Of a DNA stretch of 64,000 nt, positions 21,770-23,749 are shown in pieces. The translations under genes and the position numbers were made by a program. Positions within the stretch are counted from its first letter, which is position 1, and every line of letters starts with the position of its first letter. The stretch lies in assembly GCF_053078305.1 (NCBI RefSeq), contig NZ_CP166879.1; one strand, given 5' to 3'. The notes under the pieces are model-generated. The model ran no database searches, had not been told where the DNA came from, and saw nothing but the letters and a program-made list of their open reading frames with translations.

Positions 21770-23638
21770 TCAGACAATATAAACAGAATTGTGATTTATA
21801 TCCTCAAGCGCTGTATTAACGAAATATATCTGTCCTCCTGCAATACCTGCCTCAACATCATTTCCGGTTTGTTTCAGACATGAAATAAACTCATCTGTCG
21901 ATGTAACAATACCCTTTGATAAAAACAGAAAATCTTTTTCACCCTTATGTTTATTAAAATCCATGATAAATGAATTCCCTTCACAAGCAGCATCAAAGAC
22001 GAAGACATCATGACCAGTACCACCATACAGATAATCATTACCTCCCCCACCATATAACCAGTCGTTACCTTCTGCTCCGTACAACTCATCATTACCAGAA
22101 GCCCCATGAAGATAATCATTCCCGCGACCTCCGTGTAAAAGACTTACTCCTTCTCCCCCGGCACTATGTAATATATCATTTCCGTCAAGACCAAAAATAA
22201 TATTTCCGAACAGACTATCATCTCCGTTTGTACCTTCTGTATGTTTTCCGTAATCAACATTTTTATTACGCCACTTCAGAAGATACCTGTGGTCTGTAAT
22301 CTGCTCTTCTTCTATCTGATAAGGGCTTAGTTTACTCCTCCAGTCACCAGAAAAAGAGATACCTTCAATACCTGTTGCCTCAGTCAGACCGGCTCCCCGT
22401 TCTGAATGGAAAAACAGCGTCCCATCACTGACCCTGTATATATTCCAGTCATCCATTACATCGCTAAGAAGCAGCGTGTCATACCCACTGCCACCATCAA
22501 CCCTGTTTGCTCCCTTACCTGGTTCAATCTTATCATTCCCTCCCCCTCCCTCTATATAGTCGCCACCCTTCCCGCCTGCCAGCAGATTATTGCCATCATT
22601 ACCGATGATGAATACAGGTCTTTCACGACTCTCATCCCCCTTGTCATGAACCCATGAATACCAGGATGTCCAGCTACTTTGCTCATCCACAATGACTGTA
22701 CTGTCCGGTGACATGTAGTCGTAAAACTGAGCCCCTAAAATTCTTTCAAAGGCGTCAGTTTTTAAACCCGCAAAATGCGCACTCCAGCTTCCCAGCGGGA
22801 GTGCAAGCACAGAAAAGGGGATAATATTCCAGAGGAATGAACCATAAAGGTCTGTGTATAAAACAATGTTATCAGGAGAAGAGTCATATTCACGATCCGG
22901 GGTTGTCAAGCCCGGCCCCATTGCTTTAACTGCCTCCCAGAACCCGGCTCCATCTCCCAGCACACGAAATACCGGATCGTTTTCAAAACCGATATTTAAT
23001 ACCTTCCCATCCCCGTCAAATACCAGCGGGGAAGCCCAGGCTATATAGTCAGAATTAGCATAAAAACCATCAGCCAGAGACTCACTGAGTCTGGCCATAA
23101 TGTTAGTCAACCCGCCCCCCAGGCTATAGCCTGTGACAATAACATATTCACCACTTAAACCATTACTGACTGCAAAGTCTCTGATACTTTGAAGCAGGTT
23201 TTCTGCTTCAGACAGCGCTTTTCCATTATTGAGCTGTGTATAATCAACAATATCGCAGATATCATTTGTTCCACAGAATGATATTGCAATTTTCTGTAGA
23301 TTCTGTTGAGCATCAAACAACCCAACAACTTTCAACTGAGGACCAAATCCTGGCGCAGGGTTTCCTGTAACCGGACTGGGAAAGCGATAAAAACCTCTTG
23401 AATCGACATATTCCGAAGATAACCTGAGTTCTTCCACTGTAATATCACGCCAGCCTTCATTAAGAACATCGGTAGAATAATCAATCCTATCTGGGTGCTT
23501 TGCAAATAGCCTGGATACCAGAAAACTTCCTAATCCAAGAACCTTTCCAGTGTTGGAATATATAGCAAGATTATAAGAAGAAGAAACAAGTTCTGCTACA
23601 TGTGCAAAAGAATAAGATTTATAATTAAACACCCCCAT
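21770..23638 (-). CDS. secreted lipase with C-terminal RTX calcium-binding repeats (probable T1SS substrate)
   Basis: GYSLGGG lipase nucleophile motif; multiple GGxGxDxL-type nonapeptide repeats (GGGGNDYLYGGTGHD); no signal peptide; start chosen at the internal ATG with a strong AGAGGAG RBS (the ORF extends to 23698). Confidence 0.7.
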   Translation of the reverse strand: MGVFNYKSYSFAHVAELVSSSYNLAIYSNTGKVLGLGSFLVSRLFAKHPDRIDYSTDVLNEGWRDITVEELRLSSEYVDSRGFYRFPSPVTGNPAPGFGPQLKVVGLFDAQQNLQKIAISFCGTNDICDIVDYTQLNNGKALSEAENLLQSIRDFAVSNGLSGEYVIVTGYSLGGGLTNIMARLSESLADGFYANSDYIAWASPLVFDGDGKVLNIGFENDPVFRVLGDGAGFWEAVKAMGPGLTTPDREYDSSPDNIVLYTDLYGSFLWNIIPFSVLALPLGSWSAHFAGLKTDAFERILGAQFYDYMSPDSTVIVDEQSSWTSWYSWVHDKGDESRERPVFIIGNDGNNLLAGGKGGDYIEGGGGNDKIEPGKGANRVDGGSGYDTLLLSDVMDDWNIYRVSDGTLFFHSERGAGLTEATGIEGISFSGDWRSKLSPYQIEEEQITDHRYLLKWRNKNVDYGKHTEGTNGDDSLFGNIIFGLDGNDILHSAGGEGVSLLHGGRGNDYLHGASGNDELYGAEGNDWLYGGGGNDYLYGGTGHDVFVFDAACEGNSFIMDFNKHKGEKDFLFLSKGIVTSTDEFISCLKQTGNDVEAGIAGGQIYFVNTALEDINHNSVYIV

Positions 23639-23749
23639 AAAATCTCCTCTGAATTCATTTAAATATCCTTCATTTATCCAAGAAGAAACAAAAAGCATTA
23701 TTCTCAGATAAATTTTTTCAGTAAAAGAGCATACCTGGAGTAGAACTTA

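Follow-up and report, generated by a model that had tools for sequence, protein, structure and literature searches.

A divergent family I.3-type RTX lipase/esterase in Escherichia coli and its candidate exporter, an adjacent LssB/LapB-type type I secretion system

A gene for a putative repeats-in-toxin (RTX) lipase lies in a 64,000-nucleotide stretch of Escherichia coli DNA (assembly GCF_053078305.1, contig NZ_CP166879.1; hereafter, the window). Just upstream, on the same strand, lie the genes for a giant repeat protein and for the TolC, ATP-binding cassette (ABC), and HlyD components of a type I secretion system (T1SS). This arrangement raises the question of whether the gene product is a genuine lipase and, if so, which exporter carries it out of the cell. 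An earlier note on this DNA had called it a family I.3 lipase and a probable second cargo of the T1SS, the expected substrate of which is an adhesin. To our knowledge, E. coli is considered to have no secreted lipase. The databases that we checked label the protein as hypothetical, with cluster names such as "hypothetical protein," "calcium-binding protein," and, wrongly in one record, "hemolysin E," and a literature search by RefSeq, GenBank, and UniProt accessions and by keywords retrieved no paper on the lipase. The explanation that we consider the best, with a probability of about 0.6 for the whole, is that the protein is an RTX lipase that serves as accessory second cargo of the co-resident LssB/LapB-type TolC-ABC-HlyD system.

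As to the identity of the protein, a phmmer search against PDB sequences retrieved the lipase of Pseudomonas sp. MIS38 (2z8x; E value, 1.3e-63) and LipA of Serratia marcescens (2qua; 3.5e-60), and the alignment placed the published catalytic residues of the former, Ser207, Asp255, and His313, opposite identical residues of the window protein. The corresponding triad (S172, D221, and H288, counted from the start codon at 23638) does not vary among 26 aligned homologues, whose identity goes as low as 33%, and the nucleophile belongs to the G-Y-S-L-G-G-G motif (residues 170 to 176) that the earlier note had pointed out. The best curated profile was NCBIfam PueAB (NF050046), which aligned over model positions 1 to 615 of 616 with 334.3 bits; since this score is half of the curated cutoff of 670, the protein falls outside the named PueAB family. 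Furthermore, the AlphaFold2 model, built on 26 homologues, reached a mean predicted local distance difference test (pLDDT) score of 85.5, and Foldseek matched it over its full length with the MIS38 (PML) and Serratia (SML) lipases (E values, 2e-39 to 8e-35; template modelling [TM] scores, 0.65 to 0.68) at 28 to 31% identity, with no further match above the level of RTX-only hits. The significant Pfam matches of the lipase were limited to three HemolysinCabind (RTX) domains, and Lipase_3 appeared only with an independent E value of 0.46, so that Pfam alone would miss the catalytic domain. The "Phospholipase-like" family PF26363 occurs weakly in the precomputed annotations of some homologues and gave no match in our local Pfam search; PADLOC gave no match for the lipase or for the C-terminal region of the giant protein. 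Thus, the assignment as a family I.3-type RTX lipase/esterase is secure, being fully supported by sequence, profile, structure prediction, and conservation of the catalytic residues. The homology search against the Serratia and Pseudomonas lipases found both, and it did not point to a non-lipase alpha/beta hydrolase, the outcome that the earlier note had named as contrary to its proposal.

The list of open reading frames (ORFs) of the window holds a long form of the gene (21770..23698, minus strand), and the earlier note had hesitated between starts at 23698 and at 23638, the latter with a strong ribosome-binding site. The start codon is the ATG at 23638, because the PueAB alignment begins at residue 21 of the long ORF; the N terminus MG-[VML]-F-[DN]-YK recurs in the alleles of E. 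coli, in Paralysiella, and in about 80 loci of other genera; the 20 extra upstream codons have no counterpart in alleles with shorter intergenic regions; the Shine-Dalgarno sequence AGAGGAG precedes the codon; and an identical protein of 622 amino acids (aa) is on deposit (WP_044187479.1). A start at 23698 was therefore ruled out by the N termini of the homologues and by the lack of conservation of the upstream codons.

The features expected of a T1SS substrate were also recognizable. At the N terminus, no hydrophobic core resembling a signal peptide was found (the maximum Kyte-Doolittle mean over 11 residues was 1.5), and the model folds this segment as a helix of the catalytic domain. Eight RTX nonapeptides are distributed in two blocks; both the missing signal peptide and the C-terminal Gly/Asp-rich nonapeptides described in the earlier note were confirmed by hydropathy, Pfam, and the model. 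The hydrophobic tail of the lipase, ...ALEDINHNSVYIV, is laid out like the ...LNSLSADGIVIA tail of Pseudomonas, and this layout is common to the lipase and the Pseudomonas and Serratia enzymes; the stretch corresponding to the last 60 residues is replaced in plasmid alleles. The absence of cysteines is usual in family I.3 lipases, as a typical trait rather than a strict criterion. It holds for all of 25 classical members, which have none, and does not extend to the window protein, which has four (residues 122, 128, 552, and 587; codon starts at 23275, 23257, 21985, and 21880). The plasmid allele retains C552 and C587, which are missing from an orthologue that is 72% identical. Because of this architecture and of what is established for family I.3, the lipase would leave the cytoplasm unfolded, with its C terminus first, through a T1SS, and it would fold outside the cell once calcium binds to the RTX repeats.

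The distribution of the gene bears directly on the choice of the exporter. Among 5,426 complete E. coli genomes, 51 (about 1%) carry the lipase, at 28 chromosomal and 24 plasmid places, and the ABC gene occurs in 301. The distance between the lipase and ABC genes is 3 to 21 kb in 25 of the 28 chromosomal records and in both of the plasmids found in both lists; the other three chromosomal records have two ABC copies each, one of them listed. Moreover, the order TolC-ABC-HlyD-giant protein-lipase is constant in every annotated locus inspected, namely, the chromosome of strain SCU-171 beside subAB (L001), strain N51 as far as the locus extends (L002), the SCU-171 plasmid beside iroBC (L011), and the locus of the 72%-identical orthologue (L005). 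Across loci, the identities of the ABC protein and of the lipase to those of the window follow the same rank order (99.7/93, 95.7/88, 92/72, and 61/47%, respectively). Among the E. coli alleles, the ratio of nonsynonymous to synonymous substitution rates (dN/dS) is 0.19 to 0.26 (about 0.23) for the lipase versus 0.03 to 0.09 for the ABC gene, and the lipase gene is under purifying selection. One E. coli locus has the T1SS with a different giant protein and no lipase.

The carriers of the lipase include strains of E. coli that produce Shiga toxin (STEC), isolates from urine, blood, and cerebrospinal fluid, and conjugative plasmids, and its 90% protein cluster comprises 1,484 sequences, with a length of 622 aa for most of those listed. 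The commensal SCU-171 has two complete modules, one on the chromosome and one on plasmid pSCU-171-1 next to iroBC. The first ~55 nucleotides (nt) and the last ~180 nt of the lipase gene are swapped between allele groups, so the ends of the gene are mosaic. In several STEC genomes, the gene is broken by an insertion sequence (IS) of the IS3 family; one plasmid record annotates it in two pieces, an alpha/beta hydrolase and a calcium-binding protein, and another as an alpha/beta hydrolase family protein (the records behind these observations are NZ_CP075632.1, NZ_CP027586.1, NZ_CP027340.1, NZ_CP075665.1, and NZ_CP026932.2).

Outside Escherichia, the nearest relatives are 39 to 47% identical and belong to Neisseriaceae, Pasteurellaceae, Moraxella, Psychrobacter, Morganella, Halomonas, and Burkholderiaceae; in a crude neighbour-joining (NJ) tree, this lipase subfamily clusters well apart from the Pseudomonas and Serratia enzymes. 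In two of these lineages we could notice the same kind of pairing as in E. coli. In Paralysiella testudinis, the genes upstream of the lipase are those of an LssB-type T1SS, an OmpA-like gene, and the gene for a giant protein of another kind (Big_6), and in Ursidibacter arcticus, the lipase gene is 3.7 kb from an LssB-type T1SS, with lepA and lepB in between, and is the sole ORF with RTX motifs in a 22-kb locus. The 1.26-kb spacer between the giant protein and the lipase of P. testudinis (L004, 8737-10000) contains repeated short elements, e.g., TACCAATTCTACAAAATAAGA..., that look like small dispersed repeats.

The T1SS genes of the window were classified by profiles and by predicted structure. 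The ABC protein scored 891.1 bits on the LssB model TIGR03375 (cutoff, 693.1) and stayed below the cutoffs of the HlyB and PrtD models. It has about 150 extra N-terminal residues, of which ~125 form a C39-like fold in an AlphaFold2 model of residues 1 to 150 (pLDDT, 79); the best Foldseek match was the C39-like domain 3b79 (TMt, 0.81), and the C39-like domain of HlyB (3zua) was also retrieved. No cysteine is present in helix 1 of this domain, nor was Peptidase_C39 matched in Pfam. The outer-membrane component scored 109.7 on the TolC profile, below the cutoff of 225, and its orthologue is assigned to the TolC family by PGAP. In the window ORFs scanned, all 150 aa or longer, neither LapG nor LapD nor a second T1SS was found.

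The giant protein, presumably the primary cargo, begins with a conserved N-terminal module and continues with 18 GA-like repeats, identical to one another and 100 aa long; four degenerate GxGxDxU motifs lie in its C-terminal region. At the DNA level, a 300-bp unit that encodes the GA-like domains is repeated 18.1 times at positions 24851-30292, with 100% identity between copies, and an 1,844-aa ORF on the opposite strand (24794-30328) is an artifact of these repeats. Among related loci, the length of the product ranges from 647 to 3,707 aa. Residues 1 to 155 (30400-30871) comprise ~140 N-terminal residues followed by a hydrophobic Gly/Ala-rich stretch, ...LAAIALAAGGGGG / ...GIIWGGIAFGAGLAAIALAAGGGGG, and this module is near-identical in all of the E. 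coli variants, including the lipase-less locus L012, where the repeats are of another kind; it may be a retention or anchoring module. In NCBIfam, neither the N-terminal 400 aa (E ≤ 0.001) nor the C-terminal 567 aa matched any family.

The expression of the lipase gene is a separate matter, since the earlier note had described an intrinsic terminator candidate upstream of it and had suggested that it may have its own promoter. The terminator was confirmed, with 13 base pairs, about -23 kcal/mol, and a T-run; the hairpin proper is at 23761-23790, with the T-run beyond it. A hairpin and a T-run are found at the same place in all of the variants examined (L001, L002, L011, L005, and Paralysiella). 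The hairpin of L001 is that of the window, and each of the other four has a different one, which indicates that the terminator is conserved by position and not only by descent. The promoter, instead, could not be established: a promoter scan gave 3 matches where chance alone predicts 6.2, which makes the TTTACT/AATAAT match weak evidence, and the distance between terminator and lipase ATG is 21 nt in L002 and 34 nt in L011, too short to accommodate a promoter after the hairpin in these two variants. We infer that transcription of the gene either reads through the terminator or starts at a promoter that overlaps the adhesin gene at its end. The terminator would uncouple the expression of the lipase from that of the adhesin gene, and read-through would result in a low ratio of lipase to adhesin; an overlapping promoter would be the alternative. 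The coordinates of all of these elements are collected in Table 1.

Table 1. Coordinates, in the numbering of the window, of the lipase gene, its sequence elements, and the adjacent T1SS genes
Feature	Position	Strand	Description
Lipase gene	21770..23638	-	622 codons plus stop; divergent family I.3 RTX lipase/esterase; 67.8 kDa, pI 4.46
Shine-Dalgarno AGAGGAG	23644..23650	-	5 nt ahead of ATG 23638; from sequence
Upstream in-frame ATG	23696..23698	-	Not the lipase start; overlaps the -10-like hexamer
Nucleophile elbow G170-Y-S172-L-G174	23117..23131	-	Ser172 aligns with MIS38 Ser207
Asp221 codon, ENDPVF motif	22976..22978	-	Aligns with MIS38 Asp255; invariant
His288 codon, SAH motif	22775..22777	-	Aligns with MIS38 His313; invariant
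RTX block 1	22469..22576	-	Residues 355-390, three nonapeptides; Pfam, motif, model
RTX block 2	21998..22132	-	Residues 503-547, five nonapeptides in a row; Pfam, motif, model
Last 60 residues of the lipase	21773..21952	-	Presumed uncleaved C-terminal T1SS signal; ends ...ALEDINHNSVYIV
Sigma-70-like TTTACT-17-AATAAT	23697..23725	-	Consensus match only; not enriched over shuffles
Intrinsic terminator after the adhesin stop codon	23751..23790	-	13-bp GC-rich stem, 4-nt loop, T-run, about -23 kcal/mol
Giant acidic repeat protein	23798..30871	-	2357 aa; presumed primary T1SS cargo
HlyD-family T1SS periplasmic adaptor	31156..32418	-	TIGR01843, 321.7 bits vs cutoff 208.65
T1SS ABC permease/ATPase	32463..34610	-	LssB/LapB type, 715 aa
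TolC-family outer-membrane protein	34615..35883	-	"OEP" of the published OEP locus

Export of the lipase by the adjacent LssB-type system is a plausible reading and the most economical one, because the lipase is recurrently linked to an LssB-type transporter in three distant lineages. Judging from the gene neighborhood, the exporter would be the LssB/LapB-type TolC-ABC-HlyD system encoded at 31156-35883, with the adjacent 2,357-aa GA-repeat surface protein as its primary cargo and the lipase as an accessory one. The second-cargo proposal of the earlier note is consistent with the conservation of the module and with the pairing in Paralysiella and Ursidibacter. Several observations weigh against this reading. 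No T1SS lies within 10 kb at about 50 of the 54 non-E. coli loci of the subfamily that were inspected (their neighborhoods being judged on 10-kb flanks), and 250 of the 301 E. coli genomes with the ABC gene are without the lipase. In Halomonas sp. 328 (L032, 10001-16486), a 42%-identical lipase leads a lipase-ABC-HlyD-TolC operon, the ABC protein of which is of the PrtD type (TIGR01842, 765 bits). When the C-terminal 280 aa of the lipase were compared with the C-terminal 450 aa of the giant protein at six loci, the E. coli loci gave chance-level matches (E values of at least 0.007). The G+C content of the lipase gene is 42.6%, versus 50 to 55% for the T1SS, adhesin, and YadA-like genes, and this low value suggests that the lipase joined the module later. 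Export by the adjacent system is also argued against by the strong terminator between adhesin gene and lipase, by the IS3-disrupted or split copies in several strains, by the lack of a C39-like domain in characterized lipase exporters such as LipB (PMC8277102), and by the description of LapB/LssB-like transporters as an adhesin-specific subgroup (bioRxiv 10.1101/198937). In the same C-terminal comparison, Paralysiella gave weak repeat-level matches, and the candidate of a secretion signal common to lipase and giant protein was discarded, as the matches, at chance or weak repeat level, contained no usable signal. The Halomonas operon is a natural comparator for transporter specificity.

Some of these observations would be explained if the protein, although truly a secreted RTX lipase, left the cell in trans through a different T1SS of its host, e.g., a hemolysin-type HlyBD/EhxBD system, and its adjacency to the window system reflected co-transfer on one island and not function. 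This would agree with the G+C content and the terminator, with the fact that most of the relatives are orphan genes needing a distant exporter, and with the lipA gene of Serratia, which is unlinked to lipBCD (PMC3034196). We nevertheless consider it unlikely, as the E. coli lipase was never seen away from this T1SS, on chromosomes or on plasmids, the two are paired again in Paralysiella and Ursidibacter, whether or not a giant protein accompanies them, SCU-171 has the complete module twice, and the window ORFs scanned include no other T1SS. Still less credit, and in fact very little, is given to the hypothesis that the lipase is a dispensable, decaying passenger in E. coli, with no useful expression or secretion in the strain of the window: the interrupted or split copies in several STEC genomes, the terminator directly upstream with no convincing promoter, and a dN/dS higher than that of the ABC gene could be read in this sense, but the window copy is full length with all of the catalytic residues, its dN/dS is well below 1, its ribosome-binding site is strong, and the large 90% cluster consists, for most of the members listed, of 622-aa proteins. 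A different doubt concerns the substrate, since the family I.3 fold might act physiologically not on triacylglycerol but as a phospholipase or as a short-chain or polyester (polyurethane-type) esterase, on host or environmental lipids. PueAB, the best curated profile, is a polyurethane esterase family, the region of lid 1 lacks about 16 residues relative to the MIS38 lipase, the region aligned with the second lid is modelled at a pLDDT below 50, the weak PF26363 annotation occurs in some homologues, and the characterized lipases are only distantly identical (28 to 31%); on the other hand, the PueAB score is far under its cutoff, the triad and the overall fold match those of true lipases, and the sequence does not discriminate among substrates, so that we hold this alternative as possible, although it is not the one that we favor. 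Returning to export by the adjacent system, it can be tentatively hypothesized, at a likelihood clearly lower than that of the second-cargo explanation, that transporters of the LssB/LapB class, regarded as reserved for giant retained adhesins, have a soluble enzyme as a further cargo here, in Paralysiella, and in Ursidibacter. Since the pore of LapA is closed to co-secretion when LapA is retained (bioRxiv 10.1101/198937), the release of the lipase would then depend on channels free of the giant protein.

Beyond the module, the lipase gene of the window is followed by genes for a YadA-like trimeric autotransporter (20301-21527) and a LuxR/GerE-type regulator (18789-19304). Genes of these kinds also come after the lipase in L001, L002, and L005, and the plasmid has a LuxR-type gene in this position; the autotransporter and the regulator may belong to the module or regulate it. 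On the other side, a TpgA-like OmpA lipoprotein (37541-38314), a 1,454-aa EmaA-like trimeric autotransporter (38339-42703), and the siderophore receptor IreA (43344-45479; 1,514 bits) are encoded within 37541-45479, which makes this an adhesin- and iron-uptake-rich island. Farther along are an 893-aa superfamily 1 (SF1) helicase-like protein (55046-57727) with partial matches to the anti-phage ProA and Hhe models and the type VI secretion genes for a TssA-like protein (58401-59765) and TssF (62202-63965); IS elements also occur within the window.

If the lipase is active and secreted, it is a candidate accessory colonization or virulence factor. If the neighboring pump exports it, the substrate range of adhesin-class T1SSs is wider than thought, the module is a small, naturally occurring system in which the choice of cargo and the competition between cargoes in type I secretion could be studied, and some STEC and extraintestinal E. 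coli strains have an unrecognized secreted lipase on islands and conjugative plasmids. Even if neither holds, a correct functional annotation becomes available for many unnamed proteins.

The comparison with known systems helps to place both the enzyme and its putative exporter. The lipase resembles the family I.3 lipases (MIS38 PML, 2z8x; Pseudomonas fluorescens TliA/LipA; S. marcescens LipA, 2qua) in its length of ~615 to 620 aa and its two domains, in the Ser-Asp-His triad within the GxSxG, ENDPVF, and xSH motifs, in the MG-x-F-D/N-YK start, in the lack of a signal peptide, in the two RTX beta-roll blocks, and in the hydrophobic C-terminal tail. Different from the classical members, it sits on a deep, separate branch of the crude NJ tree with proteins of Morganella, Moraxella, Neisseriaceae, and Pasteurellaceae, it has the shorter lid 1, four cysteines, and the low identity already mentioned, and it adjoins a transporter that is LssB-type with a C39-like domain and not of the PrtD/LipB type (PMC8277102). 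With the polyurethane esterases PueA and PueB, it shares the end-to-end profile alignment, whereas the score at half of the cutoff sets it apart.

As for export, Serratia LipBCD secretes LipA, PrtA, and the 1,002-aa S-layer protein SlaA (PMC3034196), that is, a lipase and a large surface protein through one T1SS, which is the logic proposed here; it differs in that LipB has no C39-like domain (PMC8277102) and lipA is unlinked, whereas the window genes are contiguous and of the LssB/LapB type. In the LssB score, the C39-like domain, and the giant acidic cargo with degenerate C-terminal RTX motifs, the window T1SS is like LapEBC-LapA and LssBD-RtxA. It seems to differ from them in that LapG and LapD were not found among the window ORFs scanned and the N terminus of the giant protein has no NCBIfam match; moreover, a soluble enzyme is not a known cargo of the LapB/LssB subgroup (bioRxiv 10.1101/198937). 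In the literature, the T1SS appears only as the "OEP locus" of STEC, named after an outer-membrane efflux protein in a T1SS about 1.5 kb from subAB2-2, and the paper describing it used the locus only as a marker, with no mention of a lipase (Funk et al. 2013, PMC3852854). In SCU-171, the subAB subtilase cytotoxin genes (L001, 31893-33375) are ~1.5 kb from the TolC gene, as in the published locus, and the TolC/T1SS genes beside them match it; in the window, where no subAB was seen, the TpgA-like and EmaA-like genes are instead found upstream of TolC.

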